Made by a program: the position numbers and the translations under genes
Assembly (NCBI RefSeq): GCF_004010195.1
Contig: NC_057718.1
Location: forward strand, 73,430,234-73,494,233
Source: Chiloscyllium plagiosum
Taxonomy: Eukaryota
Length of the DNA: 64,000 nt
Reading direction: 5' to 3'
The notes under the pieces: generated by a model
Told to the model about the DNA's origin: nothing
Database searches by the model: none
Seen by the model: only the letters and a program-made list of their open reading frames with translations
Shown: positions 13,361-59,138 of the stretch, piece after piece
Layout: every line of letters begins with the position of its first letter
Numbering within the stretch: position 1 is the stretch's first letter

Positions 13361-14357
13361 CTCTATATTTCTGTTATCTATGATCCTGTGCCTTACAAAG
13401 ACTTGGAGCAATCTCAAATGTCCCTTAATCTGTGTGATCATGGCTTTGGCCTGTTGGTAAGGAAGGGATTAATTAAACTGTTCTGACGTTTGTTCATGTC
13501 ATACTGCTGGTTTGTATTTATATAGTAGTTATGGTCAAGGACAAGTCAAATTAAACGTAATGATTACCAAGCTCTGAAATACAAGATTCTTAGAGCAATG
13601 GTTACCACCATCAATTTAGCAAATCTAATTTGAGACAATTAATATGATAGACTTCAAAATTTCAACTGGTCTACAACAGCAGTGTGTGGGGTATCAGGGA
13701 GTTTCAGAAGTGAATTTGTCAGTACATTTTTAAAGCAATCCCTGCATTTGCATTGGATTTCCACTTTCCTAATCAATGAGCACCAGCAGTCTTGATGACA
13801 GTCCTCAATTGCTTATTTCCGATCAAATGTGTAAAGGGATTCTGCTGTCGAAGGAGCCTGGTGAATTTCTGCGGAAAACTCAATTGGTGTGCAGTTTTTG
13901 AAACAGATACTGAACTAGAGACAATGAAAGCACACATTTCAACTCAATAGTGTGCTTCAGCAATGTCTTCTTGCAGGGATGCTGTGAGAAAAAGCTGACA
14001 GGGAGGTTATTTTCCTTCTCTGATAGGTAAAGGACTCTTGCTGCAATGAACAGGATCACGTGGTTTGATCAGTGAAGATGTCAGCAGCAAGTATGTGGTG
14101 CCATATCCTACATACAGTACTAGAAGAGGCTTAAATAACTTATCAGGGCAGGGAAAATAAATTACTTGGCACATTCAAGTATTTCCTGGCAAATATCTGA
14201 TTCCAACCCCATCTTATTCTGAAATAAAAACAGAAAATGTTGGAAGAACTCAATAGGTCTGGCTGCATCCATGAAGAAAGAATATAAATCTATAGTTGCT
14301 TCATCAATGACTTTCCCCCTATCATAAGATCAGAAGTGGGGTTGTTTGTTAATAATG

Positions 14358-14485
14358 AGAGAAAATGAGGGCTGCAGATGCTGGAGATCAGAGCTGAAAA
14401 TGTGTTGCTGGAAAAGCGCAGCAGGTCAGGCAGCATCCAAGGAACAGGAGAATCGACGTTTCGGGAATAAGCCCTTCTTCAGGAA
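14358..14485 (-). mobile_element. Mini PLE insertion (HHR + terminus + tail, family A)
   Basis: 15-bp TSD TGTTTGTTAATAATG at 14343-14357 and 14486-14500. Confidence 0.9.
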
Positions 14486-14519
14486 TGTTTGTTAATAATG
14501 GCATAATGCTCAGCCCCAT

Positions 14520-17122
14520 TAGCACAGCAGCATGCTACAACTTTTTACCATTCAAGTAGTAATCTATTTTGCTGTTAGTCCTATCAAAATGTATGATTTC
14601 ACTTTTATTAACATTGTATTCCATCTGCCAGACCTTTGCCTACTCACTCAATGTATCTGTGTTCCTCTGCAAAGTTTCACAGTCCTCTGCTCGCTTTGTT
14701 CTGCCACTCATCTTACTGTCATCAGCAAATTGTGACACCGTACATGCCGCCCCCAACTCCAACTCATCTATTTAAGTTGTAAATAATTGTGATCCCAACA
14801 CCGATCCCTGAGGGACACCATTCATCACTGATTGCCAACCAGAATAGCACTTATTTATCCCCGCTCTTTGCTTCTTGTCAGTCAACCAATCCTCTATCCT
14901 CATTTATTTTCTACCCCTAACACCAGGCATCTTTATCTTACACAACAGCCTCATGTGCGGCATCTTGTCAAAGGCCTTTTGGAAATCTAGGTATACCACA
15001 TCCACTGGGTCCCCGTTGTCCACCTTGCGTGAAATGTCTTCATAGAATTCCAAAAGATTTGTGAAGCATGACCTGTCCTTCATGAACCCAGGCTGTGTCT
15101 GTACAATGAGACAATTTATTTCCCGATGTCCTGCTATTTCTTCCTTGATAACAGACTCAAACATCTTCCCCACTACAGAAGTTAGGCTTACTGGCCTATA
15201 ATTCTCCATCTTTTGTCTACTTCCCTTTTTAAACAGTGGTGTCATAATTACTCTTTTCCTATCTGCTGGGACTGCCTCAGAGTCCAGCAAATTTTGGAAA
15301 ATTACTGCCAGTCCTCCTGTTATTTCTCCCACCATCTCTTTTAATACCATGGGATGCATTCCATCAGGGCCAGGAGACTTGTCTATCCTTAGCTCCATTA
15401 GCTCACTCAGCACTAGCTCTTCTGTAATAATAATTGTTTCCAGGTCCTCGGCTACCTTTGTCTCTTCGTCACTTACTAGCATGTTATTAATATCTTCCAC
15501 CGTGAAGACCGATGCAAAGTACCTGTTCAATGCCTCAGCCATTTCATCACATCCCATAACTAACTGCCCCTTCTCATCCTGTAAAGGACCAACATTTACT
15601 TTAGCCACTATTCTTCATTTTATATATTTATAGAAACTTTTGCTATCTGTCTTTATATTCCATGTTAGTTTTTTTCTCATACTCTTTCTTACTTTTCTTT
15701 ATCGCTCTTTTTGTGGCTTTTGGTAGACTTTTAAAGTTTTCCTAATCTTCTAGATTCCTGCTGTTTTTGGACACTTTGTATGCCTTCTCTCTCACCTTGA
15801 TAGCCTGCCTAATTTCCTTACATGCCCATGGCAGATTACCCCTCCTCTTATAGTCCTTCCTTCTCACCGGAATATACTTTTACTGAGCACTTTAAAAAAT
15901 TTCTTTGAAGGTCCTCCACTGCATGTCAACTGTCGCACCATAAAGTCTCTGTTTCCAATCTATGTTAGCCCGGTCCTCCCTCATTCTGTCATAGTCCCCC
16001 TTATTCAAGCACAGCACCCTGGTATTGAATCTTATCTGCATACTATCCAGCGGTATTTTAAGTTCAACCGTACTGTGATCACTCCTGCCAAGAGGATCCC
16101 TACCTATGAGGTCATTAATTATTTCTGTCTCATTACACAGGACCAGATCTAGCTTGCTTCCTTATTGGTTCCATTATATACTGTTCAAGAAAACTATCAT
16201 GGATACACTCAAAGAACTTCTCCTCAAGGCTACCCTGACTGAGCTGGTTGGATCAATCTACATGCAGATTAAAACCCCCCACAATAATAGCCGTACCATT
16301 TTTGCAGGCATTAGTTATTTCTTTGTTTATTGATCACCCCAATGTGATGTTATTATTTGGTGGCCTGTAGACTCTGCCTATCTGTGACTTTTTCATCTTG
16401 GAATTCCTAATTTCCACCCAAATGGATTCGACCTCATGATCCATTGAACCTATATCATCTCTCAGCACTGCCCTGATGTTGTCCTTGAATACCAGAGCTA
16501 CACCACCTCTCTTACATTCCTGGCTGTCCTTCCTAACAGTCTGGTATCCCTGGATACTTAATTTCCAGTCATGGCCATTCTGCAACCATGTCTCCATAAT
16601 GGCTACCAAATCATATTCTTTCACAATGATTTGTGCTGTTAACTCATCAAACTTGTTACGCATGCTATGAGCATTCAGGTAGAGTGCCTTTACGCTAGTT
16701 TGCTTACCCGTCATGATTCACAACATCATTAATATCTCCTAAGTTATCCTTCATTTTTGCTTCTTTCATAGTCTGCATTCAACTTAAACCCTCCTGCACA
16801 TATGCTAACTTGCTGCTTACCTTTTCATTTATCACCATACGTCCTGTTGCTTTCCCTCTCCCTTCCCCCGACTCACAAGTTTAAAGTCCTGGTGACCACC
16901 CTATTTATCCTTTTTGCTAGAACATTGGTTCCAGATCGGTTTAGGTGGAGACTGTCCCATTGGTATAGATTCCCCCGGTTCCCAAACTGATGCCATTGTC
17001 TCCTGAAGTGGAACCCCTCTTTCCCACACCAATCCCTTAGCCACATGTTTACTTCCCTAATTTTCTTATCCCTAAATCAATTTGCATGTGGCTCAGGCAG
17101 TAATCCAGAGATTATGACCTTG
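14520..17122 (-). mobile_element. CR1 LINE, ~2.6 kb (ORF1 end, endonuclease, RT), disrupted
   Basis: LYLNAHSMRNK, YRPPN, NYRPVSLTSVVGK, VYLDFQKAFDK. Confidence 0.95.
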
Positions 17123-17264
17123 CCACTCCCCAAATACATTGCCAGCAACGTTCCTGACAGCCTTCTGCTCAACGCTCCTGCACCTTCCTGCTGCTGGAAT
17201 AATAATGATGGGCCCCGACGCTAGAGGGGAGTTTTTATATTTTTTGCTCACCTTCCCGATAATC

Positions 17265-19290
17265 AAGGGAGAACAGTCTCAACTTTTCCAATCTATTTTC
17301 AGAACTGTTCGAGTAAATTGCTACTGCCCAATATATTGCCCACAACTGTACACAATACTTCAACAAATAGTATGGTCCAACAGGGGTATTGCACAAATTC
17401 AGCATGATCTCCTTGCTCTTATTCTCTATGCCCCAATTAATAAAGCCGAGAACATTCATTGCTCTCTCCACTGTCCTCCCACTTTCAATGATCTGAGCAC
17501 ATAAAGACAGAGGTTCCTCTGTTCCTGCACTCCTTCAGAATGGCGCTCTTGATGTTGATGTTGTCATTCTATGATCACTGACTAAAGTGCATCACAACAC
17601 ATTTCTCTGCACTGAAGCATATTTGCTAACAACCCACCCACTCCACCAACTTATCAATGCCCTTTTCATGTTCCAAACTGTCCTCCTCACAGTTTACAAT
17701 TCTCCCAAGTTTACTTTCATAGAACCAAAGAGGTCTACAGCACAAAAAAGTCCCTTGATCCCATTGCGTGCAGGCTGAACAAAAGCAACCACCTAACTAT
17801 TCTAAGCCCATTTTCCAGCACTTGACCCATAGGCTTGTATGCTTTAGTACATTTAAATATTTCTGAAATGTTATACAGATATCTGCCTCTACAGGCAGAC
17901 AGTTCTGGTTTCCTACGTACCTCTGGGTGAAAAGGTCTTTCCTCTCATCTCCTTCTGCACCTTACCTTTAATCAATGCCCCTATCATTGATCTCTCTATC
18001 AAAGGGAGAAGTTTCTTCCTGTCTACCCTTTGTATGCCCCTCATAATTTTAAACATCTCAATTATCCCCTCTCAATCTCCTCTGCTCTAAGGAAAACAAC
18101 CCCAGACTGTCTAATGTCTCTTCATAATTGAAACTCTCTAGCCCAGGAACACCCTCGTAAATCACCTCTGCATCCACTCCAGTAGTACTATCACATCCCT
18201 CCTTTAATGTGGATTCCAGAACAGCCCACAATACCCTAGCTGTGGCCTAACCAACATTTCATACAGTTCCAGCATAACCTCCCTGTTCTTAAATACTGTG
18301 CTTTAGCTAATTAAAGCAGGTATCCCATATGCCGCTTTAACCAGCTGTCCTGATGTCTTATGGGATTGGTGTACGTACACAACAAGGTTAATCTGATCCC
18401 GATTTCCAGGGTCCTACAATTTATCATGTATTCCCTTGACTTGTTTGTCCTGACCAAGTGCATCACCTCACACTTATCTGGATTGTGCCACTGCACACCA
18501 GGTTCCAGTCACACACAGCCCTCTCACATCATCCTCTGTCTCTGTCACTACACCACTTTTGGATCCATCTTGGCAGGTTACCCTTGATCCCATGAGCTTA
18601 ACTTTTTTAACAGTTTCCTACGTGGAACCTTATCAAAAGCCTTGCTGAGATCCATATAACTTTCATCAAGTGCCTTGCCCTTATCCAAACACTTTGTCAC
18701 TTCCTCGAAAAATTCTACCAGATTTGTTAGGCATGATCGCCCTCTGACTAAACCATGCTGACAATCCCTGAAGAAACGTTGCCTCTCTAAATGCAGATAA
18801 ATTTTCACCTTCACTATTCGCTCTAATAATTACCCTACCAATGATGTTTGATTCACTGGTCTACAGTTTCCCTGGTCTATCTATATGACCCTTCTTGTAA
18901 AATGGAACCACGTTAGCTGTATTCTGACACCTCTTCTGTGGCCAGAGATGTTTTAAAAGTCAAGGCTCCTGTAAGTTCCTCCCTTGTCTCCCACAGCAGC
19001 CTGGGATATGACTCGTCCAGACCTCGAGATTTGTTCACTTTTAAATCTTTCAAAACCTCCAACATCTCATTGCTTCTTAAATTAGTCATCTCGAAAACTT
19101 TAAAGTTCACCTTCTTGAATTCTATACTTCCATCCTCTTTTTCCCAACCAAATACAGACATGAAATACTTACTTAACACACTACTAATGCCCTCCAGCTT
19201 CACGCACTGATTGCATTCTTGGCCCTACTCTTTCCCTGGCTATTCTCTCCACCTTGATATACTTGTAGAATATCTTAGGATTCTCCCTCA
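17265..19290 (-). mobile_element. Two adjacent decayed CR1 fragments
   Basis: QHGLVRGRSCLTNL, YMDLSKAFDKV, KCEVMH; second 3' end begins near 17718. Confidence 0.85.
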
Positions 19291-19544
19291 TCTTGCCCAC
19301 CAGCATTTTCTGTCTGTTAATTCGAGTCTTTGGATCCTGGCAGTTTGCTGTAAAAAATTTGTTATACAATTTAACCTGCCTTGTGTCCTACATTATGATG
19401 TGCCAAAAGACCTAGCATCAAACAGTCACTGAAATTTATTTAGTTACCACATCACTCATTTGAGTAATATGCAGAATGTATTTCAGTGCTGGTGTTAGCC
19501 ATATGTCCCAAAAACTGACAGATCATATGAAGCAGCCTATCCCT

Positions 19545-19987
19545 TTTGCCCGAAACGTCGATTTTCCTGCTCTTCAGATTAGATTAGATTACATTACATT
19601 ACAGTGTGGAAACAGGCCCTTCGGCCCAACAAGTCCACACCGACCCACCGAAGCGTAACCCACCCATACCCCTACATTTACCCCTTAACTAACAGTAAGG
19701 GCAATTTAGCATGGCCAATTCACCTAACCTGCACATTTTTTTTTGGACTGTGGGAGGAAACTGGAGCACCTGGAGGAAACCCACGCAGACACGGGGAGAA
19801 TGTGCAAACTCCACAGAGTCAGTTGCCTGAGGCAGGAATTGAACCTGGGTCTCTGGCGCTGTGAGGCAGCAGTGCTAACCACTGTGCCACTGTGCCGCCC
19901 ACAGATGCTGCTTGACCTGCTGTGCCTTTCCAGCACCTCTCTAATCTAGACTCTGGTTTCCAGCATCTGCAGTCTTTGTTTTTACCT
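19545..19987 (+). mobile_element. Mini PLE terminus split by a SINE
   Basis: GCCCGAAACGTCGA..tail; 25-bp direct repeat at 19520-19544 and 19988-20012. Confidence 0.85.
19577..19900 (-). mobile_element. HE1/V-SINE
   Basis: Full head, V-domain and tail. Confidence 0.92.
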
Positions 19988-20140
19988 AGATCATATGAAG
20001 CAGCCTATCCCTCTGGCTGTTTTTGACAAGCAAGTTAATGATCACATTCAACCAGCAGGTGCTTGCACATCTCAGGTCACAGTAGACTATAGATGTGATG
20101 TTGTAATTGGACAATATTCGCTAAATAATTCTGAGTATGA

Positions 20141-20457
20141 GTGTGTGGCACAGTGGCTCAGTGGTTAGCACTGCTGCCTCATAGCGCCAGGAACCTGGGT
20201 TTGATTCCAGCCTCGGGCGACTGGCTGCGTGGTGTTTGCACATTTTCCCTGTGTCTGTGTGGGTTTTCTCCGGGTGATCTGGTTTCCTCCCACAGTCCAA
20301 AGATGTGCAGGTCAGGTGAATTGACCATGCTAAATTGCCCATAGTGTTAGGTGCATTAGTCAGAGGGAAATGGGTGTGGATGGGTTACCCTTTGGAGGGT
20401 CGGTGTGGAATTGTTGGACTAAAGTACCCATTTCCACGCTGTAGGAATCTAATCTAA
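20141..20457 (+). mobile_element. HE1/V-SINE, second subfamily
   Basis: Diagnostic GTGCATTAGTCAGAG segment shared with 42533 and 52451 copies. Confidence 0.9.
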
Positions 20458-20839
20458 GAAAATGCAGATGAATTGCATTATCAATTGAGTATTTTCAACG
20501 GGGTTGGCTGTATCAAGCTTGTGTTTACTGAAAGCCATATATGCTAATACATAGGGTCCCGTTGTTCACAGACAGAAATAAAATATACACACACTGTTCC
20601 TGTTTCAACTAAGCAAAATAGGTGAAAGCCATCGTCAGATTAATTTCCCATGACTATCTCTTGACCTATCAGAGTTAATCTGCCTGGTTTTAACTTCAAA
20701 CAAAGCTTGACAGTTAACTATCAGTCTCTGGTACATTCTCCACACCAATTAGTGTCACTTGCAAACCAATTAACACTCCCCATTGATATTTTTTATGAAC
20801 TATCCTGACGAGTACAAGACAAAAACATTGAATGAAGTA

Positions 20840-24843: not shown

Positions 24844-24844
24844 C

Positions 24845-25782: not shown

Positions 25783-25871
25783 CGCTGAAAATGTGTTGCT
25801 GGAAAAGCGCAGCAGGTCAGGCAGCATCCAAGGAACAGAAGAATCGACATTTCGGGCATAAGCCCTTTTTC
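25783..25871 (-). mobile_element. Mini PLE insertion (family A, tailless, HHR mutated)
   Basis: 9-bp TSD AGGAGACAG at 25774-25782 and 25872-25880. Confidence 0.85.
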
Positions 25872-26429
25872 AGGAGACAGGAGACACCCAAGCAAAAAGA
25901 AACCACATACAGGAACCTCAGGGCAGTGCAGAATTGATGGGACCCTCCATCTTTTCCTCTATCCTACCTACTCCCTCCAAGCCTTCAAGGTTCTAGCCAA
26001 GATGAGTCAACATAACTGTCAGGAAGACACATACCATGTCTGGCCCATCCAAACAGAAGCACTCCTGGAGTTGCCTGATGAAGCCTGCAGGACGTTTGGA
26101 AAAATATATCTGTCTTAACCAGACATCGGATTGTCAATCTCTGTGTAGGGCCAAATGGCATTTTAACATCATCCTAACTACAGACCACATGGAGGTCTGT
26201 GCTGAGAACCTGCTGCATCATGTGGGAGCAAGACAATCAATGCATATACATGGTATGGGTCATGCTGATATCTTTGGCCTCTTGTAGAATATCCCTATTG
26301 TTTCACAGCCTCAATGGACAAAGGCGTAACCATCAAGGAGTTCTCCAGCCATATCTGGGGTAGAGATGTACAACAAATGGAGGGAGGGTAATGGTTGTAA
26401 GTTTGTTTGCTGAGCTGGAAGGTTTGTTT

Positions 26430-26464
26430 TCAGACATTTTGTCACCAGACGGTGTCGTCAGTGA
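26430..26464 (-). ncRNA. Decayed hammerhead motif (family D)
   Basis: Antisense TCA-CTGACGA-..-AAAA-TGTC-TGA; differs from GAAACGTC by CpG-type changes; stem I UCA/UGA intact. Confidence 0.5.
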
Positions 26465-28173
26465 GTCTCTGGTGAAGCACTAGTATTTTGTCCTGCTTTC
26501 TATTTTTGTGTCTTGCTTTCTTAGGGTTGGTGATATCATTTCCAGTTCTTTTTCTCAGAGGATGGTAAATGGGGTCCAAATCAATGTGTTTATTGATGGC
26601 ATTCTGGTTAGAATGCCATGCCTCTAGGAATTCCCGTGCATGTCTCTGTTTAGTTTGTCTTAGGATGGATGTGTTGTCCCAGTCAAAGTGGTGTCCTTCT
26701 TCATCTGTATGTAAGGATACTAGTGATAGTGGGTCATGTCTTTTTGTGGCTAGTTGGTGTTCATGTATCCTGGTGGCTAGTTTTCTGCCTGTTTGTCCAA
26801 TGTAGTGTTTGTTACACTCCTTGCATGGTATTTTGTAAATGACATTCATTTTTATGGTTGTTTCTATAGGGTCCTTTAGGCTCATAAGCTGCTGTTTAAG
26901 TGTGTTGGTAGATCTGTGGGCTACCATGATGCCAAGCGGTCTGAGTAATCTCGAAACTATTTCAGAGATGTCTTTGATGTAAAGTAATGTGGCTGGAGTT
27001 TCTGGGCATGTTGTGTCTGCTTGTTTGGGTTTTTTGTTGAGAAATTGGCAGACTGTGTTTATTGAGTAACCATTCTTCTTGAATACGCTGTATAGGTATT
27101 TGTTTTCTGCTCTTCGTAGTTCCTGGATGCTGCAGTGTGTATTTAATGTCTTAAATACAAACTACCGCTCAACACCCCACAGGCCAAAAGAATAGCAGAA
27201 CAGAACGGTTGCAGAATGCTTAGAGAAATGAGTAATGATTCCCACAACTGACTCCATAAATACAAATCGGGAGACTTCATGCCAAAAAACTTTATGCACT
27301 AACATGACAGACACACTAGAATGAGACATAAGCATCAAACAGCAGGAAACAAAGAATGGAAAGAAGAACCCTTCAGGAAAAACTAGACAAGCTCACACAA
27401 GAAAACAACACAGAGAACGCTGAGGCTTGAATTTAAAAAAGCTATCAAACTGACCACTAACAGATACAGAAACAGCCATCCTAGTAAGAGGGCTAAACTA
27501 CAACTACAGGGACATGGACAAAAAGGACTTCCTGGCAGCATTAGAATCAACACTGAAAGACAATGGACTCACAGATGAAACCCAGCAGACCATCAGGCAG
27601 ATAGTTGACCAATATTAAGCAGGAAAAAGGCAGTAAACACACTCAATACACAGGAAAGGAAAGCCCTAGAAAGACTTTAGAAAAATTGCAATCCGACCTG
27701 CAGACAAAGGGCACAAGACTGTCATTCCAAACAGAAAGGATGACAATGAAAAAAGTGAACTCACAGCTTGCAGATAACAACACTTACCAACAGGTGGTGA
27801 TAGACCTGACTCCACAACTAGAAAACAGAGTCACATCCTTTCTGAAAAAGGCTTCAGAAATTCGGAGAAATAAACAAGACAGATTTGCAAAAAAATGAAA
27901 CTGGATGGATCCTTCTGTGGATTACCTAAAGTACACAAACCAAGGGCTCCCCTCAGTCCCATAGCCTCACTACCTGGAACACCGACACACAGGCTAGCCA
28001 AGGAACTCCACCAAAATCTAAAATACCTAGCGGAAGACTCATGCCACTCCATCCATGAATTCCTGAACACCATCAAGGACACTAAAACAGAAGAGGATGA
28101 AATAATGGTCTCCTTTGACATATCAATTCTGTTCACATCAATTAACATCAACCTGGTGAAAGAAACACTGACT

Positions 28174-28353
28174 GATTAGATTACATTGCACATCTTTGGA
28201 CTGTGGGAGGAAACCGGAGCACCCGGAGGAAACCCATGCAGACACGGGGAGAATGTGCAAACTCCACACAGTCAGTCACCTGAGGCTGGAATTGAACCAG
28301 GGTCTCTGGCGCTGTGAGGCAGCAGTGCTAACCACTGTGCCACCGTGCCGCCC
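28174..28353 (-). mobile_element. HE1/V-SINE with internal deletion
   Basis: V-domain joined directly to (AATCT)n; interrupts PLE RT at KETLT/ALLEE. Confidence 0.9.
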
Positions 28354-28872
28354 ACTGCACTACTAGAAGAACCAAAGACACAAACACCAGACAGCGCCAG
28401 CTTCATCAGCAAAGACAACATCCTCAAGCTAGTAGACCTGTGCCTTACCACCCACTTCACATTTAATAACAAGACCTACAAACAAATCAATGGTACACCC
28501 ATGGGATCACCAATATCAGGATTCCTAGCTGAAGCAGTAATGCAGAGACTTGAACAAACAGCCCTCCCAACTATTCAACCCAAACTTTGGGTCCCCCATG
28601 TGGATGACATCTTTGTCATCACAAAACAGAACAAATTGGAGGAAACCAACAACACCATCAACAATATCCTCACTGGCATAAAATTCACAAACGAGGAGAA
28701 CAACAACAGATTCCCATTCCTGGATTTCACAGTAGAGTGAACTTCAAACCAGTGTCTACAGGAAAACAATACACAAACCAAATACTTAACTACAGAAGCA
28801 ATGTTTGTGAGAAGATTTGTAGCTCGGGTGCTCATTGCTGTGGTTCTGTTCACCGAGCTGGAAGTTTTTGTT

Positions 28873-28912
28873 GCAAACGTTTCGTCCCCTGGCTAGGCGA
28901 CATCCTCAGTGC
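28873..28912 (-). ncRNA. Minimal hammerhead ribozyme motif (family B)
   Basis: Reverse complement of 29158-29197. Confidence 0.75.
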
Positions 28913-29157
28913 TTGGGAGCCTCCTGCGAAGCGCTTCTTTCCTCCGGTGTTTATAGTGGTCTGTCCCTGCCGCTTCCGGTTGTCAGTTTCAGCTGGCTAG
29001 TTGATGTAACGACACGCCATTAACAAACACATCGACCTGGACCCAATATTCCAACCATTACAGCGGACAGCTGAAACTGACAACCGGAAGCGGCAGGGAC
29101 AGACCACTATAAACACCGGAGGAAACATCAAAGAAGCGCTTCGCAGGAGGCTCCCAA

Positions 29158-29197
29158 GCACTGAGGATGTCGCCTAGCCAGGGGACGAAACGTTTGC
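29158..29197 (+). ncRNA. Minimal hammerhead ribozyme motif (family B)
   Basis: GCA-CTGAGGA-T-GTCGCCT-agcc-AGGGGAC-GAAA-CGTT-TGC; stem I GCA/UGC; stem II 6 of 7 pairs. Confidence 0.78.
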
Positions 29198-30031
29198 AAC
29201 AAAACCTCCAGCTCGGCGAACAGAACCACACCACAGAAGCAATCATCCCAACTGTTATCTGGTATGGTGACAAAATGTCTGAAAACAAACCTTCCAGTTC
29301 AGTGAGCAAACTTACAACTAGGACCTCAACCTAGGCTACAAATCTTCTCAAAGATTACGGGAGGGTAATTCTTCAGGATGACTAGGGAATAGGGACCCTG
29401 CAGGTCTCATCATGCAGAGAACATGAATTTGTGTAGAAAATTCTTCCCTTCTATAAGCCTTAATATTGGTACGTCCTCAGCCCCCTTCCTGCCAGGTTTG
29501 GTCACTTACCCTAACCATTCAAAATGTAGTTGCAACCATTTACTTCACTTTTAGAGACCTTCGATTTCCAACACAATGGAAAATGATTGAGCGCTCATTA
29601 GCTACTGGTTTCCAGCTGGTAAATCCATTCCATTCCTCGTAGTTCATTCCATAAAACCCACAGACCTTACATTCCCGAGGTCCTGACTGGACTCACCATC
29701 CTGAGCCTGCACCTGCCTGCCCTTCCCACCCACCCTCTGGCACAGAAGGTGATCATGCCAGGTGTAGTCATTCACTGCCATCACCTTCAAGCCAGACAGC
29801 TCCCAGCTATGGATGACTGCCGCCAGCCACCCTTCATAATCCCTTCCCAGCAATCACTACTATATCCCTCCCCAGCAGATACTGTTGTCCTCCTCACAAC
29901 TCCTATCCTTCCTTCTCCAAAGCTTACAGTCCCTAGTGCCAAAGATTAATTTTCTAATCTCATTCCTACAGCAATTCATTTGCAATCTCCATGAGTATTG
30001 GCTTTGGCTCCTTGTAATTATGTTTCCATGT

Positions 30032-35467: not shown

Positions 35468-35598
35468 AGGCAAAGGTGAGGACTACAGATGCTCGAGATT
35501 AGAGTCAAGATTAGAGTGGTGCTGGAAAAACACAGCAGATCAGGCAGCATCCAAGGAGCAGGAAAATCAATGTTTCGGGCAGGAGCCCTTCATCAGGG
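35468..35598 (-). mobile_element. Mini PLE insertion (family A variant)
   Basis: Antisense CTGATGA-A-GGGC-tcct-GCCC-GAAA; TSD AAAAGAAT at 35460-35467 and 35599-35606. Confidence 0.82.
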
Positions 35599-37769: not shown

Positions 37770-38195
37770 AAGGACATTAATCAACCAATCAAGTCAATTC
37801 CATCAATTTCAATAACTGAGAGAACTCTCCTTCCACACAAGTTTCCTTCTGAACCATGGTGTAAGATTGTAACTGACACATTCTATGTCCAAGAACATGA
37901 TTACATTTTGGGAAATGACCATGCAGAAATTCCATTTTGTGTGACAAAGCAAAGGTAGCACCAGTGCAACAATTGTTGACACATTTACTACCACATTTGG
38001 TTTGTTTGCTATATCTGAACAAATTGTATTTGACAATAGTCACGGTACATAAAAGCATCCTTCCAAGATGTGTGCAGGGAATGGGTTTCAGTATATTGCT
38101 ACCTTTGCTCACTATCCTCAGGCAAACAGCCTTGTAGAAAGCACTATTCATATTGTATGATCTGTGATCATTAAACATAAAGCAACATTTTTGAT

Positions 38196-39218
38196 GATGT
38201 AGAGGTGCCGGTGTTGGACTGAGGTGGTCTAAGTTAAAAATTGCACAACATCAGGTTATAGTCCAACAGGTTTATTTAGAAGTATTGGTTTTCAGAGTAC
38301 TGCTCCTTCATCCAGTAGCAGGATCATAAGGCACAGAATTTATAACAAAAGATTACAGTGTCATGCAACTGAAACGATACATTGAACAAACCCAGATTGC
38401 TGTTAAGTCTTTCATTTTTTAGAATGAGTTGCAGATTTCGCCAAGACCTTCCCTACATCTCCACTTCTCACCTTTAAACAACCACCAAACCTTAAACAGA
38501 CCATTATTCACAGCAAACTGCCCAGCTTTCAGGACAACTCACGCAGACACTCTCTCATACACACACTCTCTCTCATACACACACACACACACATACACCC
38601 CACACACTCACTAACTTACAGGCTTATACTCCATCACACTCACACACATACTTTACCAAGCAACACACACACTCTCTCATACGTACTCACACTCAACGGA
38701 CACATTCACATGCACACACTCACACACTCTCTCATGCACAAACACACACACATATTAGTCTATGGGGCAAATTTGCATTTGCAGAATTGCAATTGCAGAT
38801 ACATTCTATTTTGCTCAAAAGGCACACAATCTGCAGGCAGTCAATGTAGGGAGTCAATCTGTATAAGATTTTATAAATTCCAACTTTGGAAATAGAACCA
38901 GTCTGACTCAAGATTGCGATACGACAGACTCTGGCCTGACAAATTCAATGCATTGTCTGAGCTGAGATGTCACCTTTTTTAATAAAAGCTGAAGCTATCT
39001 CAAGAATGTGATTTAAAAGAAGTTCTGGAATTTACATATTAATGAACTTAAACCTGCAACCTATCCTAAAAGATGAAAGACTTAACAGCAAGCTAGGTTT
39101 GTTTAATATATAATTTCAGTTGCATGACACTGTAATCTTTTGCTATAAATTCTGTGCCTTATGATCCTGTTCCACAGCTACCTGATCAAGGAGCAAACCT
39201 GGTGTGTGATTTTTAAAG
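38196..39218. mobile_element. Inverted-repeat PLE (family C) with CA-rich interior
   Basis: Arms ~38321-38434 and 39054-39167; KTFPTSPLLTFKQPPNLKQ; TSD ATTTTTGAT at 38187-38195 and 39219-39227. Confidence 0.82.
38540..38755. repeat. CA/CT-rich degenerate microsatellite
   Basis: Direct inspection. Confidence 0.9.
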
Positions 39219-45440: not shown

Positions 45441-45447
45441 TGAATAT

Positions 45448-46215: not shown

Positions 46216-47389
46216 AAATGCAAACTTAAAAACTATGTGCTCTTTTAAATTCAACCAAGCATGCATTTATTCACAAATACTATGGATACGAGGAGTGTGA
46301 CAAACTGCTTCCCAGGAACATCATGAGATATGAAACCTAGGCAAAGGAACAAAGCCAAAGGATCAAGAGTCCAAATGAAAATGAGTGGATGAGGTGATTT
46401 TCTCATGATTCTTTTGGTTTTTAGGCAATAATATTGCATTGTTATTGGCTGCAGAGACCCTCAAATTAGCAGCTGGTTAGTTGGACCTTGGTATTGTCAT
46501 GAGTTAGAGGTTGTTAACTTTTTTTCCGAATTCTTGCATTTTTTTTTCCAATCATAGGGGAAGAGAGTGATTTGGCTTTTCTGTATATTTTTAGAGGTCT
46601 AAAGGTCTACTGGATCTCTTTTCCCATTTCAACAAAACTACTCCTTGCAACAAAAAGCTGGTGCTGGTATGATATTATAGACTTCAGAACTTTGATAACT
46701 GTTCATGGACTGAATGAATCAACAAAAGATAAGCTATTATACACAGCAGTAACTCTGTCTGGAATAAACTGTTAAGGAACAAAAAAAAGCAGTTACACAG
46801 AGACTCAAGCAATTAGCCACATCTTGGCGAGATGGCATAAACAGAGCGGCTTTAACACTTGGTTGATAACTGGATGCTTTATCACCTCAAAAGGCAAGGA
46901 CTGCCATGCAGAAGAATCTAAGGAGTTAATCACAAGAAAGCAATGTCTTCATACAGACAGTGAAGGCCAAACTTAGCAAGGAACAGAGGAACTCCTTTGA
47001 CAAGGAAGCCAACTGCAGAGCTGCAGTAATTCAGATGAAAGGACGTTGAAGGAAATCATCAATATCTCACCTCAGAGACTAGAGGACAAAAATTTGCATA
47101 AGAATCAAACACCAGAACTCCCCTTTTGGAGAACTTAAAAGAGTAATACTGCTCAACGATCAAACCCTGGAGACTTCCTTCCTTCCCCCTGCCCCCAGTC
47201 AGACGACTGTTGATTGAAATGCTGGCCAGATTTCACCATTAATTGGGTTACAGGCTTATACTTGCTTACTTGAGGGGTCTAATATTTGGTTGCTACCTGC
47301 AACAAAGTTTGAATGATTGTTTCAGTGCTCGATTGTGATATTTCTTCATAAATAACTGCCCTGAAGCCACCGCTGATGCATGGGAGTTG

Positions 47390-48600
47390 TCCGGAATCAG
47401 CAGCTGGTACAGGGAAGGAGTCCCGGAGCAGTGGCCAGTGCAGGGAAGCCTTCCTGGAATGGCGGCAGGCACAGGGAAGCAGTCTGGAGCAATGGCCAGT
47501 ACAGGGAAGCAGCCCCGGAACAGCAAAGGGCACGGGGAAGAAGACCCGGAACAGCGGCCAGCACAGTGAGGCAGTCCTGGAATAGCAGCCGGCACGGGGA
47601 AGCAGTCCTGGAATAGTGGCTGGCACGGTGAAGCACCTCCGGAACAGCAGCCAGCATGGAAGAGCAGACCAGGATCAGCGGCCAGCATGGGTAAGCAGCC
47701 CCTGGAATAATGGCCAGCACAGTGAAGCAGTCTCAGCGCAGTGGCCGGCATATGGAAACAATTTCGGATCAATGGCCAGTGCAGGGAAGCAGGTCCAGAA
47801 CAGTGTCCAATGCAGGGAAGCCATCTCGAACAGCGGCTGGCATGGGGAAGTTAACCAGGAGCTGTGACTGGCACGAGGAAGCAGTTCCAGAACTTTGGCC
47901 AGTGCAGGGAATCAGGTCCCGTGCATGTGGAAGCAGTCCGGGAGCAGTGGCAAGCAAAGGGAAGCCATCTTGGAACAGCAGCTGGCACAGAGAAGCTGTC
48001 CCAGTGCAGTGGCTGGATGGTGAAACAGTCCCAGAGCTGTTGACGGCACAGTGAAAGATCCCGGATCAGTGGATGCCACAGGTAGCAATTCCAGATCAGT
48101 GCCCAATGCAGAGTAGCAGGTCTGGAGCAGCAGCTGGCACAAGGAAGCAGTCCTGGAGCAGTGGCTGGCAAGGGAAAGCTGTCCCGGGGCAGTGGCTAGC
48201 ACTGGGAAGCAGTCCCAGAGCAGTGGCTAGCACAGGAGAACTGTCCCGGAGCAATGGCTGGCACGGGGAAGTAGTCCCGGAGCAGTGGCCGGCACAGGGG
48301 AGCGGTCCCTGAGCAGTGGCCAGCAGTGGCCTGTTATAGTGGCCAGTACAAGGAAGCAGTCCAGTTGAGTGGCTGTCACAGGGACGCAGCCCCAAAGCAG
48401 TTGCCGGCACGGGGAAGCAGCACTGGTGCAGTGGCCAGAGCAGGGAGCCCTCCAGCAGCAGTGGCCAGCATGGGGAAGTAGTCCGAGAGCAGTGGCTGGC
48501 ATGGGGAAGTCGTCCCAGAGCAGTGACTGGCATAGGGAAGCAGTCTTGGAGTGGTGGCCAGCACAGGGAAACAGTCTTGGGAGGATGCCAGCGAAGAGAA
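47390..48600. repeat. GC-rich minisatellite, ~31-bp unit, roughly 39 degenerate copies
   Basis: Consensus approximately GGAGCAGTGGCCAGCACAGGGAAGCAGTCCC. Confidence 0.95.
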
Positions 48601-50102
48601 AACTTACCTTGGAGGCTTGCAGCAGCGCGGGGATTGTTGTTGGACTGGGGCCAGGTGTGGGCAGTCAGACCACACGTGGAAACCCCTATACTCAGCCATT
48701 GCAATGTAACATTTATTTGAATTTTTTTCTTCCTGACTGTACTGTCAATCCTTTAACAACATCTTATTTCGAACTTATTCTTTAAACATTGCAAAGTAAT
48801 GCAACTACTTTTCTTTTTATTCCTCTTTATACCTGAGATTTGTACCGAGGTACATGTATCTAAGATAGCGCCATAAGAGGTGACATTACATATTGAACAT
48901 CAAACAGAGAACAGCACAGTACAGGCTCTTCAGCCCTTGATGTTGTGCTGACCTTTTACCCTACTCTAAGATCAAACTAACTGACATACTCTTCATTTTA
49001 CTAACATCCATGTGCCTATCCAAGAGTCACTTAATTGTCCCTAATGTATCTGACTCTACTACCACCATTGGCAGTGCATTCCATGCACCCACCATTCTCT
49101 GTCTAAAGAACCGACCTCTGACATCTCCTGTAAATCTTTCTCCAAACACCTTAAAATTATGCCCCCTTGTGATAGCCATTTCTGCCCTGGGAAAGTGTCT
49201 CTGATTATTCACTCTATCTATGCCTCTCATCATCTTGTACACCACTACCAAGCCACCTCTCAAATCTTTGCTCCAATGAGAAAAGTCCTAGCTCCCTTAA
49301 CCTTTCTTCATAAGACATGCCCTCCAGTCCAGGCAGCATTCTGATAAATCTCCTCTGATCTTCTGTAAAGCTTCAACATCCTTCCTATAAAGAGGTGACC
49401 AGAGCCAAATGCAATATTCCAAGTGTGGTCTAACCAGGGCTTTATAGAGCTGCAGCATAACCTCATGACTATTAAACTCAACCCCCTGCTAATGAAAGCT
49501 AACAAACCATGCGCCTTCTTACAACCCTATCAACTTGGGTGGCAATTTTGAGGATCTATGGATATGGACCCCAAGATCCCTCTGTTCCTCCATACTGCCA
49601 AGAATCCTGTCTTTAACTCTGTATCCTGTACCCAAATTTGACTTTCCAAAATTATTTCACACTTTTCCATGTTGAACTCCATCTGCCATTTATCAGCCCA
49701 GTTCTGCTTCCTGTCAATGTCCTGTTGCAACCTACAACAGTCCTCCACACTATCCACCACTCCACCAACATTGGTGTAATCGGTAAACTTACTAACCTAC
49801 CCTTCCACTTCCTCATCCAAGCCATTTATAAACATCACAGAACAGAGGTCCCAGAACAGATCACGCAGAATATTACCGGTCACCGAGTTCCAGACTGAAT
49901 GCATTATCTACCACCACCCTTTGTCTTCTATGGCTAGCCAACTCTATATCCAGACAGTCAAATTTCCCTGTATCCCATGCCTCTTTACTTTCTCAATGAG
50001 CTACCATTGGAAACCTCATCAAACGCATTGCTAAAATCCATGAACATCACACCTACTGCTCTACCTTCATTAACATGTTTTGTCACATCCTCAAAGAACT
50101 CA

Positions 50103-50233
50103 TGATTTGGAGATGCCGGTGTTGGACTGGAATGTACAAAGTTAAAAATCACACAGCACTAGGTTATAGTCCAACGGGTTTAATTGGAAGCACACTAGCT
50201 TTCGGAGCATTGCTCCTTCATCAGGTGATAGTG
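50103..50233 (-). mobile_element. Mini PLE insertion (family C)
   Basis: TSD GAACTCA at 50096-50102 and 50234-50240; homologous to 38196-38315. Confidence 0.88.
50193..50227 (-). ncRNA. Minimal hammerhead ribozyme motif (family C)
   Basis: CAC-CTGATGA-A-GGAGC-aat-GCTCC-GAAA-GCTA-GTG; stem I CAC/GUG; AGCT palindrome. Confidence 0.8.
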
Positions 50234-52450: not shown

Positions 52451-52757
52451 GGGGTGGCACGGTAGCTCAGTGGTTTGCACTGCTGCCTCACAGCACCAGG
52501 GTCCCAAGTTTGATTTCAGCCTCGGGTGACTGTCTGTGTGGAGCTTGTACATTCTGCATGTATTTCCTCTGAGTGTACTGGTTTCCTCCCACAGTCCAAA
52601 GATGTGCAGTTTAGGTGAATTGGCCATGCTAAATTGCCCATAGTGATAGGTGCATTAGTCAGAGGGAAATGGGTCTGGGTGGGTTACTCTTCGGAGGATC
52701 GGAGTGGATTGGTTGGGCTGAAGGGCCTGTTCCCAAACTGTAGGGAATCTAATCTAA
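52451..52757 (+). mobile_element. HE1/V-SINE, second subfamily
   Basis: Full length. Confidence 0.9.
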
Positions 52758-53349
52758 TTTATACTTTGAGTTATTAAAAATAAACCGATTCTTTCTCTGC
52801 AATACAGTTGTCCACGCACCCATCTCCAACTTAGATTTCAAATAAAACATATGTAGCCTTTGTATGCTTCCACCCTTGAAAAGATGAAATGAAAATTTAA
52901 AATATATTTCATCATAAGGTAAACACAACATGTATCAAAAAAACATTATTTTAATTTCCCTCACTCATTCTTTATCGAGGTTTTGTGCAATTTCTAGTTC
53001 TCAAATTTCTAACGTACCACAGCATCATTACATTCTTGACAGTGCATCTATATTTAAATTAAGCTTTATGAAAAAAAATGAACAAGTATAGTATCATGAG
53101 GTTGAATTAACAAATGCAATTGAAATATTCTTGCATTTTGAGTTTAATTTTCTCCAGAAATGCCGAGGGGTCATGATCAGTGTACGTCAGTGCTTCTTTG
53201 TGATTGACAAAGATTGAAATTTCAAAATGAATAAGGGCCAGTAACAATCAGAGAATCTCTTTTTCTTCTGATATTGTTTTAAATTCTTAGAAAAGTGCCC
53301 TACTCACTTTACAATTTTCAATTCATTATCTTGCAAAATGACTGGGCAC

Positions 53350-56300
53350 CAACTCCACAGAATTGTTGCAGCGTAGAAGGAGGCTACTCAGCCCAGCGTG
53401 CTTGCAGCAGTTATATTACCTAATGCCAACTCCTGCCTATTCCCCGTATCCCTTCAAATGTTCTATTCAAAAAAATCATTGTTTACTGCCTGAATAGAAT
53501 CTGCTTCCATCACATTTAAAGGCAATGCATTCCGGACCTTAACGAATCGCTGTTTGAAAAGCTCTTTTTCTCACGTCACCCTTGCCTCATTTGCACATCA
53601 TGTTCAACATATACCCTCTTATTCCTTTTTCCTTTAAAAGCAGGAACAGCTTCTCACCATCTACTCTGCTTAGCCTGTTCATGATTCTGAAAACTTACAT
53701 CAAATCTCTTCTCAGTCTTTATCTCTCCAGGGAGAACAGCCCCAAAATCTTCAATCTAGCCTCATAACTTAAGTTTCTCATCTCTGGAACCATTCTTGTA
53801 AATCACTTCTGTACTCTATCCAGTGCATTCACATCTCTTCTATAACATGATGCCCATAATTGTACGCATTACTCAGTTGATGTCTAACAAATGCTTTGTG
53901 TAAGTTCGATATCACATTCTTGCTCTTATACTCTATGCCACTATTAATAAAGCTGAGAACACTGCTTACCTTATTAACAGCTTTCTCCAACTGTGATTCT
54001 ACCTTCAGGGATCTATGCACACATTCACCCAGGTCCCACTTTTCCCGCATCCCCTTTAGAATTGTATTCCACATCTTATTTTGTCTTGCAAGCTTCTTCA
54101 TACAAAAGTGCATCACCTCATACTTCTCTGCATTCAACGTCACCTACCATTCCACCAATTTGCCAATGTCCTTTTGAAGTTTCATACTGTCCTCCTCACA
54201 GTTCATAATTCTTCTAAGTTTCATGTCATCTGCACACCAAGATGCACATCATTAATATATATCGAGGAAAGCAAGGATATCAAAACCAACACTGGGCAAC
54301 TCCACTACAAATTTTCCTCTAGCCTGAAAAATATCCATTGATTATTATTCTCTGTCTCCTATCACTCAGCTAATTTTGTATTCATGTTTTATATCATGAC
54401 CTATAATTTTCTTTACACATATCAACTAACACACTGCTAGTCATCAACTGTCACTTGGATAAAGACACATTTATTACCATGCTGTTTCTTTTCTGTCAAC
54501 CAATTCTCAATCCATGCAAATATATTACCACCAATCCTATATGACTTAATTTTTCCCATTTGCCTTTCTTGCATGGGATCTTATCAAAAGCCTTCTGAAA
54601 ATACCACATTTGCCCTTTTTTATTCTACTAGTTACACCCTCAAAAAAAACTCCAGATGAGTTAAGCATTATTTCCCTTTTATACAGCCATATTGACTTTG
54701 TCTAGTTCTTCTAATGCTCGAAAAGTGTTCTGTTTTCACGTCTTTTATAGTAAACTCGAGCTTTTACCCCACTGGTTATTTTAGGCTAATTGTTTGTAAT
54801 GATATTTCTCTCTCTCATTTTTCAAATTGTGGGATTATATTTTACAGTCTCCAATCATCAGGAGCTGATGAGCATCTATAGAATTTTAGAAAATGGTCAT
54901 CAATACATCCAATATTTCCAGGGCCATTTTCTTTAATACTCTGAGATAAGAAACCATGTTCTGAAGATTTGTCAGCCTTTAACCACCTTATTTTCTCTAG
55001 CAGCTTTTTTTTTCAATGAATACTGATTTTCTTCATTACTTCCCCCTCACTAGACGCTTGGTTCCTAATATTTCTGAAAAATTATTTGTCTCTTTTGAGA
55101 AGATCGATCCAAAACATACATTCAATTTTTCTATCATTTTTTTTGTTTTTCATTTCTGTGGGAAAGGACTTATATTTGTCTTAAGACTACAAAAAAAGGA
55201 GGACTGTATTCAGCCCCTTGAGCACAATCAGCCATTCAATAGGATCATGACTGATCCAACTCTCTGCATATCAACTTTTTTTTATTTTCCCGTAACCTTT
55301 GATTCCCTTAATAATCAAAGATCTATCTATCTCAACCTTAAATATACACACGAACTCTGCCCTACCACTCTCTGTGGCAACAAGTTCCAAAAACTCACAA
55401 CCCTTTCAGAGAAGAAATTCCTCCTCAGCTCAGTCTTAAATTGGCAGCCCTTTATCCTGAGACAAAGCCCTTTGACCGTAGGCACTTCTATTAGGGAACC
55501 ACCCTCTTAGCATTTGTCCTGTCAAGACCTTTAAGAATCCTAAATGTTTCAGTGAGATCACCTGTCATTCTTTTTTGAGTAAAATCCCAACCTGTTTGGC
55601 CATTGTTCATAAGACAGTCCCTCCATATTGAGGATCATCCTAGTGAACCTTCTCTGAACTGCTACCAATGAAATGATATCTTTCCCTAAATTAGGGGACT
55701 AAAACTGCCCACAATACTACAGATGAGGTCTCACCATCACCTTGTGCATTTGCAGTCAGACTTCCCTACTTTAATATTCCAAATCCCTGGAAACAAGGCT
55801 CAACATTCCATTAGCCTTCCTGATTATCAATTGCACCAATGTGCTAGCTATCTGTGTTTCATGCACAAGTACCCCCCCCAGGACACTTTGTATAGCAGCT
55901 TTTTGTAATTTTTCTCCATTTAAGCAATACTCTGCCCTTTTGTTCTCCCTTCCAAAGTGAACAACTTCATGTTTTCCCATGTTGTATTCCATTTGCCAGT
56001 TTTTTGCCCACTTAATCTATCAGTATCTATCTGTAAGCTGTTTGTATCCATCTTGCAATATCCCTTTCCACATATTTTTGTGTCATCTACAAATTTAATT
56101 ACAGTACATTTGCTTATTTCCTCCAAACCATTAGCATATATTGTAAACAGTTTCAATCTCAGCTCTGCTCCCTGTGGAACCCCACTGGTGACAATTTAGC
56201 AACCTGAAAAAGAATCCCTAATCCCTACTTGCTGTTTCCTTTCATGTCTATTAGCCGATTTTCTATGCCAATATGCAATCTCCAGCACTGTGTGCTCTTA

Positions 56301-58830
56301 CCTTTTGATTTCATCTTATTGAACATCTTCTGGAAGTCCACAACTGGTTCCCCTCTATCCACTCTGGTTGAGGCTTCCTCAAAAAACTCTAATAAATTAG
56401 CCAGGCATGATCTCCCTTTCATGAGGCCACGATGACTCTAACTTGATAATATTATGGTTTTTCAAATATTCTGCTATTACTTCTCAATAATTGATTCCAA
56501 AACTTTTGCAGAATAAATGTTTGGCTAATCAGTATATAGTTACTCTCCTTTTGGCCATCTCCCTTTTGGAATAACATTCCCACTGTGTTTTTTAGTTTTT
56601 AAATTGGCAAAATATTTCTCCAATTTACCTTTAATTTTATAATGGTCAAATTAGCAGTTATTATCAAACAATAAATTCTATGCTTTCTTCTGATGTTTTT
56701 CTTTGTTTTGTGCTGAATCCCCAATCCTGGGCTTCAATTTATCCTGTTTAAAGACCTTGAAAATTATGAACCAAAGAAAATCAAAAAGCACCTCTTTCCC
56801 ATTTACCAAATTCCCAAACTGCTCTGAAATCCCAGAAATATATACACTCTCAGACTATGCCTCACTACAAATATGATGGCTCGTGACTGACCATGAGAAA
56901 CTGACTTATCTTCAATAATCTTTTTCTCTTTGCTTATCAATAGAACCTTTTCCAGCCAGGTTTTTTTTTTGTTAGTTTTACTCTCCTATTCTTTTCCCCT
57001 TTCTTGAACAATCTTTTTGCTCTCTTTTGTTGAACTCTAAATTACTGTCAGTCCTCAGGCTTGTTACTTTTTCTGAAGATTTTGTATGTCTCCTCTTTGG
57101 ATCCCTAATACTATCCCTAATTTCTTTTGTAAGCAATACTTGAACCATCTTTCCCAATTTATTTTTGCACTAGATAAGAATTATTGTTATAATTCATTCA
57201 AGCGTTTCTTAAATATTAGCCATTGCCTATCTAATCCTAATCTTTTTGGGAAAGTTCCCCAATTCATCATTGCCAACTCACGTTTCATACTTTTGTAGAT
57301 CCCTTGATTTAGATGCAGAACCTGATTTTTGGATTCAACTTCACTCCCTAACTTAATGAAAAATTCTGTAACTTTATGGTCACTTTTCCCCATAGACTCC
57401 GCACAAGAAGATTGTTAATTCATCCTTTATCATTGCACAAAACCAAGTCTGAGACATGTTGCTGTTTAGTTGGTTTCTCAACATATTAGTGAAAAATAAA
57501 CAATACATATACATTGCAGGAAACACCCTTCCACAGTATTACCACGAGTTTGATTTGTTCAATCTATATATAGTTTAAAGTCACCCATGATTACAGCGTA
57601 CCCTTATTGTATGCATGTCTAATCTCTTGTTACATATTTTTCCTTACATCTCCACTATTGTTTGGGGCCTACAGACAATCCCAACCAATGTTTTCTGCTT
57701 CTTATCTCTACCAATACAAATTCTACATCATGATTTTTCTGAGTCAATATCCTTCCTGAGTATTGCATTGAATGACCCTTTACTAATAATGCTGCCCATC
57801 TCCTTTTATTATTCCTTCCCTTTTAAATATTGAAAACCCCTGAATGTTCAGTTCCCATCCTTGATAACCCTGCAGTCATGGTTCCATAATTGCAATTATA
57901 CCATACTTAGGTCTATCTATTTGCACTGTTAATTCATGTAGCTTACTTTGAATATTCTGCACACCAAGCTAAAATGCTCATATGCTTGTCTTTTTAGCCT
58001 TATAGTCACCTTAGCTTTATTTTGTGCAATGGCGCCATTTGTTTCTTGTCTGCTTTTTTGCTTTCTACTTGTACATTTTTTATTTTTGTGTACATTCTTG
58101 TTTCATCCTTCTATGCCTCCCTGCTCAGGTCCCCATCCTCCTGCCACTCTACTTTAAACCCTCCCAACAATGTTACCAAACAGACCCCGAGGACATTGGT
58201 CATGGTTATGCCCAGATGCAACCAGTCCTATTTGTATTGGTCCCATCTTTCCCAAAATAGCTCCAATGTGCCAGGACCCTGCATCCCTTCCACCTACACC
58301 ATTTCTTCAGCTACATATTCATCTAATACATACTACTATTTTGATGTTGGCTAGCACATAGTGCTGGTAGTAATCTTGAGATTAAAAATAGGACTTCAAA
58401 AGCACTAAATAAATATCCTGACTATCTATACTCAACTTGTTGATCCTCATTTTTTTTTAGCCTTTGTCACCTAACCAATTTGCACTGCTATCACTGCCTA
58501 TTCACCCTCCCCTTTAATGCCCTGCAGCATCTCTGAGACATCATTGACACTGGCACTGGGAGGCAACATACCATCTTACTGTCTGTCTTGTGGCCACAGA
58601 AATGCTTGCCAGAAATGCTATCCCCTCACTATTGAATTCCCTATTACTTTAGCCTTGTGATTCCTCTTCCCTCCTTCTCATGCAGCAGAGCAATCTTTGG
58701 GGCATGGATCTAGCTCCTCCTCTTTCTCCCTGACATGTTGTCTTCCCTAACATTATCCATGATGGTATATCTATTTGCCAGACTGCTGAGCTTATATCTG
58801 ATCTGTGCAGTCGCCTATCCTTGTTTGTCA
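53350..58830 (-). mobile_element. Stack of nested decayed CR1 LINEs (younger copy at ~55185-56570)
   Basis: KYEVMHF, KFVDDTKI, GRSCLANLLEFFEE, MGKSDHK motifs. Confidence 0.85.
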
Positions 58831-58908
58831 CCTACTGATTATGCTGTTTAGCATGCAAGTAATCCTGTTGTGTAGGTTCGTCAGGTAAACACCTTATTTA
58901 TAGGTAGG

Positions 58909-59122
58909 AGAAAGTGAGGTCTGCAGATGCTGGAGATCAGAGCTGGAAATGTGTTGCTGGAAAAGCGCAGCAGGTCAGGCAGCATCCAGGGAACAGGAGA
59001 ATCGACGTTTCGGGCATAAGCCCATCTTCAGGGCTGAAGAAGGGCTTATGCCCGAAACGTCGATTCTCCTGTTCCCTGGATGCTGCCTGACCTGCTGCGC
59101 TTTTCCAGCAACACATTTCCAG
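58909..59122. mobile_element. Palindromic mini PLE (family A)
   Basis: 91-bp arms 58941-59031 and 59034-59124; 16-bp TSD at 58893-58908 and 59123-59138. Confidence 0.93.
59001..59064. ncRNA. Two back-to-back hammerhead cores (59001-59031 minus, 59034-59064 plus)
   Basis: CTGAAGA..GGGCttatGCCC-GAAACGTC on both strands. Confidence 0.72.
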
Positions 59123-59138
59123 CTTATTTATAGGTAGG

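Follow-up and report, generated by a model that had tools for sequence, protein, structure and literature searches.

Introduction

Insertions of endonuclease-containing (EN+) Penelope-like elements (PLEs) are described as carrying a pseudo-long terminal repeat (pLTR), an inverted 5' copy, an optional tail of 30–40 bp, and a target site duplication (TSD), with 5' ends ascribed to variable truncation or antisense self-priming (PMC3846280, PMC8557442). In PLEs of the Neptune/Nematis type, a zinc-finger-like CX2-5CxxC linker lies ahead of the endonuclease (PMC8557442). A promoter in the pLTR is known, along with the lack of an obvious mechanism for pLTR regeneration (PMC2377424), and the function of the PLE hammerhead ribozyme has been called unclear (PMC8557442). 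Here, we analyze a stretch of 64,000 nt from Chiloscyllium plagiosum (NC_057718.1, positions 73,430,234 to 73,494,233; "the window"), part of a gappy vertebrate assembly of 3.56 Gb, in which six TSD-flanked inserts consist of a hammerhead and an element terminus. Each insert is a short copy of a PLE terminus that bears the hammerhead, and the 5' edge that the inserts share is probably the capped 5' end of the element mRNA, up to which the reverse transcriptase (RT) would have run without the ribozyme either cutting or blocking the template.

Four further systems are close enough for comparison. The anole PLE Poseidon PAc initiates in vitro at two internal starts and on both target strands, its product length follows the template 5' end, and ribozyme mutants leave that length unchanged (PMC11167929). 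Minimal hammerheads (min-HHRs) of metazoan PLEs occur by the thousand as single or opposite-strand copies that were ascribed to truncated PLEs, self-cleavage and circular templates being proposed for their origin (PMC4209133). Full-length L1 insertions bear an extra G as the mark of a capped 5' end (PMC11702581). Non-LTR retrozymes, finally, are non-coding, PLE-derived, and equipped with type I hammerheads, in units arranged as head-to-tail tandems (10.64898/2026.07.22.740005).

Results and Discussion

Three families of hammerhead-bearing termini, A, B, and C, were distinguished. In one family A copy (L179), a GIY-YIG frame with a Cx4CxxC linker (CNRKKCKTC) passes contiguously into the 3' untranslated region (UTR) and from there into the hammerhead/pLTR. 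Another (L285) holds a 391-aa frame with RT and GIY-YIG, the latter matching with E = 1.9e-4 and 22.1 bits, slightly below the cut-off of 22.6; the frame has 173 homologs, and most of 120 among the matches listed carry PF00078. For family B, considered on its endonuclease side, copy L098 has a GIY-YIG-like frame with CKKC in its linker. An open reading frame (ORF) combining RT with a C-terminal GIY-YIG domain, contiguous with a pLTR and with a zinc-finger-like CX2-5CxxC linker before the endonuclease, is the architecture of Neptune/Nematis-type EN+ PLEs, and the insertions share with those elements (PMC3846280, PMC8557442) the pLTR with its hammerhead, a one-sided optional tail (here 35 nt, within the 30–40 nt described), head-to-head arms, and a TSD. 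The hammerheads of all three families display the CUGANGA and GAAA boxes and a helix II with the extra 5' base, and a palindromic 15.2–16.2 position and a short helix I were read directly as well. They fit the minimal type I, with self-cleavage predicted after +28 in family A and after +29 in family B (positions are counted from C3 of the CUGA box, taken as +1); an Rfam search of the window at E ≤ 1 returned no hammerhead match. The type I hammerhead, the PLE origin, and the absence of coding sequence are features shared with non-LTR retrozymes (10.64898/2026.07.22.740005). However, no array of at least two head-to-tail units with complete hammerheads was found among the six inserts, which are single or head-to-head.

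We then placed 5' edges in 139 evenly spaced 10-kb stretches of the genome (1,336,490 non-N bases), in which arms, i.e., single copies or halves of head-to-head pairs, were found by their 3' part only. Out of 183 family A arms reaching +12, 136 stop between −19 and +12, 45 pass, and 2 are cut by a gap, corresponding to a stop rate of 0.040 per nt versus 0.0016 over the upstream 740 nt (hazard ratio ~25; P = 4e-61, with arms taken as independent). The edges have their mode at −3/−4, and of the 46 family A copies with an identity of 93% or more to the reference, 39 stop in the zone. For family B, 30/43 arms in the same samples stop as well, the modal upstream edge being −8; apparent edges at −12, −14, −17, and −23 were misalignments to the inverted arm and were excluded from edge positioning. 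Family C, despite having the same core, shows no pile-up (2/13 random and 2/25 selected arms stop). The sequence-only reading had held that random 5' truncation should not cluster in this manner and had proposed plotting endpoints relative to C3 and the cleavage site: the genome samples bear out the clustering, with a peak at the core and a distribution that is not smooth. It had also argued that simple self-cleavage would remove the core, and cleavage indeed does not explain the edges, since 6/227 arms end at +28 to +30, against 38 ends across +13 to +50. No edge peak was present among the sampled family A arms at the ribozyme cut or at a possible splice acceptor at about −27. The stubs, as we will call the short copies, thereby resemble the solo min-HHRs of metazoan PLEs in their abundance as single or opposite-strand copies, but their edges avoid the cut site and the whole core is kept, in contrast to the self-cleavage and circular templates proposed for the former (PMC4209133). 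An initial count of 154/183 stopping arms was inflated, because old subfamilies diverge upstream of −5 and end alignments falsely; reclassification led to 136/183. Mapping used one real copy, L179, as the reference, in place of an initial one that included unrelated repeats.

The edge follows the TATA spacing and carries an untemplated G, which points to a capped 5' end of the template RNA. In family B, TATAAA is located at −40 (7/9 long copies) or −38 (2/9), and the A of the CA at −8 follows ~32 nt below. In family A, the distance from a TTTATCT box to the A(−4) of CATTC is 31–33 nt, spanned by a spacer whose sequence diverges but whose length is nearly constant. That a G precedes the edge was observed at 6/7 family B loci and led to a genome-wide test with exact patterns, where G precedes A(−8) in 1,693 cases and A or T in 451. 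The template base at this position is C, so that 2,144 non-templated bases were counted, with G accounting for 79% versus 25.9% expected. In a hand tally of the first 100 listed family B arms, 63 of them pass-through rows, 13 arms end at −8, 12 of those after G; a G also precedes 3/12 ends at −7, −9, −10, or −11, no more than 2 arms stop upstream of −9, and G at −9 was found in none of the 63 pass-through rows. The opposite arm could supply some of the family B Gs, though it is no source for at least half of them. In the family A listing, 8/11 ends at −4 follow G (P = 0.0015), or 5/8 (P = 0.03) after subtraction of three with a possible G from the opposite arm. An untemplated G at the modal edge, as left by run-off at a cap, is thus evident in family B and weaker in family A. 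The extra G at the 5' joint is one of three features that the stubs have in common with full-length and twin-primed L1 insertions, the others being second-strand priming and microhomology joining; in L1, however, priming takes place at the poly(A) end and the inverted parts do not repeat each other, whereas here both arms copy the same first 95–130 nt (PMC11702581).

The 3' ends of the arms fall at two points, ~+90 (the end of the pLTR) and ~+125 (the end of the tail). Pairing is frequent: 88/227 arms belong to 44 head-to-head pairs, of which 42 combine one tailed and one tail-less arm. In copies spanning the pLTR–ORF junction, the tail continues into the family A ORF, whose ATG lies at +163; the hammerhead, +90, and +125 are therefore all part of the 5' UTR. 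In PAc, too, the tail is delimited by two internal RT starts, both strands are cut and extended, and ribozyme cleavage is not needed, the difference being that the PAc starts lie inside the ORF (PMC11167929).

These features suggest the following course of events. The element promoter would start transcription 4–8 nt upstream of C3, and the RT/GIY-YIG protein would take the nicks in both target strands as primers and start copying at +125 or +90 in the 5' UTR of the transcript. After ~95–130 nt, the RT would reach the cap and copy it as one extra base. The resulting strong-stop-like cDNA would be joined either to the target, giving a single stub, or to the cDNA of the other nick, giving a head-to-head pair. 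Trimming at microhomologies, often via TTC/GAA around CUGA, may spread the edges to +12, and the roughly one quarter of arms that extend further could stem from templates reaching upstream or from a jump. Because the RT appears to have run off at a cap, the integrated template is taken to be capped and uncut by the ribozyme. Start site, priming points, run-off, and cDNA joining are all likely in our view, and we regard the mRNA cap as quite probably the cause of the shared edge. Among copies containing the ORF start that reach the hammerhead, inspected by eye, 5/8 stop at −5 to +10 and 3/8 pass.

Several joints were recorded individually. The TSD-flanked copy L285 (2570–2600) jumps from about −9 to −273 in the ORF at a 6-nt microhomology, with the 3' UTR skipped; either template jumping in the stop zone or a deletion after insertion may have produced this. 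In L269 (1720–1745), a single case, the A8 run at the end of an RT-coding fragment is fused to pLTR position +31, near the predicted ribozyme cut. The 5' joints of L080, L040, L089, and L124 contain short extra copies of target or flank between TSD and element and resemble templated end joining. A comparison of arm versus arm in 17 head-to-head pairs did not distinguish one template from two, as most differences resemble later decay.

A number of observations weigh against run-off at a cap and keep our confidence in check. In read set X19 (2,589 family A reads, both strands), there was no site where many molecules begin, and 93% of the reads run on into unlike sequence; a second set, X20, gave no reads. 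The poly(A) single-cell reads on family A stem mainly from copies located within host transcripts. The family A box, TTTATCT, is a non-canonical TATA element, and of the 42 long copies from which its spacing derives, 16 were selected by that very motif. In the sampled loci, the family A G excess is weak (7 G, 9 A, and 1 T at −4; 7/17). Edges at −6 to −19, upstream of the proposed start, account for 24/136 in family A and require minor starts or chance extension, and family C has a TATAAA at −53 yet no peak near −22. Gaps break long copies, 17/30 of which meet one within 660 nt; such copies were counted as passing or censored. The stopping share varies, too, in that 61/100 first listed family A arms pass, although this list is biased to long copies. 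The listed arms come from the first 4.7 Mb of C1, where a higher share of family A arms crosses the core than in mid-chromosome samples, so that chromosome ends may be richer in long copies.

LTR retroelements produce minus-strand strong-stop DNA, a short cDNA extending from an internal start near the RNA 5' end to the cap. Extending the analogy, Neptune-type PLEs could conceivably replicate like LTR elements with target DNA as the primer, a proposal that we put forward tentatively and consider possible rather than probable. The pLTR would then be a U3-R-U5 unit in the order TATA, cap site, hammerhead in R, poly(A) signal, and two RT starts in U5. If the mRNA ended near +60, it would hold RT starts only at its 5' end, each insertion would begin as strong-stop cDNA, long copies would arise only via transfer to the RNA 3' end through R, and the hundreds of thousands of stubs would represent failed transfers. 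Family B does present such parts in U3-R-U5 order, namely TATA, the putative cap site, AATAAA/ATTAAA, and a tract rich in GT: the hexamer at +39/+41 is ATTAAA in 57 or AATAAA in 16 arms (73/87), followed by the GT-rich tract, and toggles between the two main poly(A) signals in the window (50184–50140, minus strand) and at other loci. The differences from LTR elements are priming by nicked target DNA instead of tRNA, and direct insertion. No canonical poly(A) signal was found in family A across −260 to +170 in two long copies, and no A-run past the predicted poly(A) site in any locus examined. Our reserve is due to this lack of a poly(A) signal in family A and to the rarity of direct-orientation jumps (1/69 single stubs, plus L285). 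If true, the scheme would supply the missing mechanism of pLTR regeneration, and the hammerhead would act as a decapping or 3'-end switch rather than as an integration step.

As for alternatives to the cap, a folded or protein-bound hammerhead might stall the RT just past the core and prompt joining or template switching. We judge this unlikely, even though the two clustered families, A and B, both stop within ~10 nt of C3, recurrent joints exploit the TTC/GAA self-complementarity at CUGA (−3/+3, −3/+6), and in L285 and L132 the zone is joined by a jump to sequence elsewhere in the element. The edge moves from −4 to −8 along with the TATA position, one specific untemplated G is not predicted by a stall, an RT at −4 would already have unwound the motif, and family C, with the same core, has the few stops given above. 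The anole enzyme, moreover, makes products whose length follows the template 5' end (PMC11167929). From the earlier suggestion of a structured stop or template-switch point, stop and switch can hence be retained, but hardly the hammerhead structure as their cause, given the missing pile-up in family C.

The other suggestion made from the letters of the window was a non-autonomous class of ribozyme mini-elements, replicating from their own short copies with PLE proteins in trans. Non-autonomous PLE derivatives are on record (PMC8557442, 10.64898/2026.07.22.740005), and copy number is very high, with ~100 stop-zone family A arms per Mb sampled and 58,747 and 11,450 exact pattern matches. A lineage of short copies was nevertheless not recovered: in a comparison of 138 arms over a 68-nt region, which has limited power, the mean nearest distance of short arms was 0.066 to other short and 0.063 to long copies, the commonest haplotypes were shared by long, single, and inverted copies, and short-copy-specific diagnostic variants were not found. 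The arms thus lack the private variants and, with edges that spread, the fixed unit of a family resembling short interspersed elements (SINEs). Edges and joints vary from copy to copy, the same joint occurs in different subfamilies, the stubs have no upstream TATA box, and ORF-start copies (5/8) end in the same zone. A separate mini-element class accordingly appears very improbable.

We give similarly little credit to the notion that the edge is an RNA end from processing, namely an unrecognized cleavage or splice junction upstream of the hammerhead, with no transcription start involved. In D. virilis, an intron does extend to the helix I 5' boundary (PMC4209133), and family A has a pyrimidine tract and a TAG at about −27 (window 90–105). 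Nonetheless, there is no edge peak at −26 or at the ribozyme cut and no common upstream exon in the stubs, and the untemplated G and the TATA spacing suit a cap. Solo pLTRs left by recombination (an origin ascribed to those of a rotifer, PMC3846280) or full-length copies collapsed in a gappy assembly that breaks long copies can practically be dismissed, because neither yields head-to-head pairs within one TSD (88/227 arms), 0/215 tail ends share a continuation into the ORF, and no upstream loose end is more frequent in the raw reads than the A(−4) edge (104 reads).

The stubs are products of known elements, and their clustering is real, quantified, and mechanistically informative. With run-off at the cap, no new element class would be needed to account for the great abundance of solo min-hammerheads. 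The stubs would then constitute a genome-scale record that makes predictions at base level: transcription of the mRNA from A(−4) or A(−8), a capped and uncut integrated template, and priming from both target nicks. The consulted portions of the EN+ PLE accounts (PMC3846280, PMC8557442) make no mention of edges accumulating, with a cap G, where the mRNA begins, and those of the PAc study do not map genomic 5' ends, for which its Fig. S2 may be relevant (PMC11167929). Our literature search, confined to main texts and largely to freely accessible papers, found no report on strong-stop DNA, strand transfer, or 5' ends at the cap in PLEs.

Annotation of the Window

All six TSD-flanked ribozyme-only inserts are present where the sequence-only reading had placed them; its edge positions hold, but with less precision than given, as TSD microhomology leaves an uncertainty of 1–4 nt. 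Five of the inserts belong to family A and one to family B. The family A stub at 14358–14485 (minus strand, C3 = 14482) has its edge at −3, or −5 with microhomology, comprises hammerhead, pLTR end, and the 35-nt tail, and is flanked by a 15-bp TSD (14343–14357/14486–14500). A second one at 25783–25871 (minus) is tail-less, with its 3' end at ~+90; its 5' edge at −2 to +3 overlaps the 9-bp TSD (25774–25782/25872–25880), so that C3 itself falls within the TSD, and the core is mutated to CTGAAAA. The older family A stub at 35468–35598 (minus, C3 = 35596) is tailed and has an 8-bp TSD (35460–35467/35599–35606). Family B is represented by 50103–50233 (minus, C3 = 50224), with an edge at −9, or −11 with microhomology, ATTAAA at +41, and a 7-bp TSD (50096–50102/50234–50240). 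The family A head-to-head pair at 58909–59122 consists of a tailed minus arm (C3 = 59031, edge −1) and a tail-less plus arm (C3 = 59034, edge +1) within a 16-bp TSD (58893–58908/59123–59138). The sixth insert, an older family A stub at 19545–19987 (plus), was said to begin inside stem II; it does start at ~+12 to +14 and has the tail, but it contains no CUGA core and is split by a SINE (19573–19903); its TSD measures 25 bp (19520–19544/19988–20012). Three of these TSDs are strong and three modest, since 288 random site pairs gave at least 7 bp in 33 cases, at least 9 bp in 5, and 15 bp in none. The distance between the edges and the predicted cut, put earlier at up to ~35 nt, is corrected to ~15–38 nt.

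The original set was also incomplete, in that copies crossing the core at 1–253, 3744–3946, and ~38194–38430, as well as the pair with cores at 28909/29161, had been omitted. The family A copy at 1–253 (plus, C3 = 130) enters an assembly gap and has a TTTATCT box and a CATTC start motif upstream of C3; the one at 3744–3946 (plus) is truncated by the gap at 3196–3743. An old family B copy at 38194–38430 (minus) reaches ~−125 and retains its TATAAA box. The family C head-to-head pair at 28800–29236, with C3 at 28909 (minus) and 29161 (plus), has arms ending at ~−94 and ~−147 and serves as an internal control without a hammerhead stop. It lies in a region (25900–29400) of nested, decayed Penelope pieces from family C and an older relative, with RT and GIY-YIG remnants and hammerhead-like cores at 26461, 28909, and 29161. 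SINEs like that at 19573–19903, which we take to be akin to the shark HE1 type, are present in many copies in the window, and a degenerate tandem array with a 31-bp unit occupies 47350–48610.

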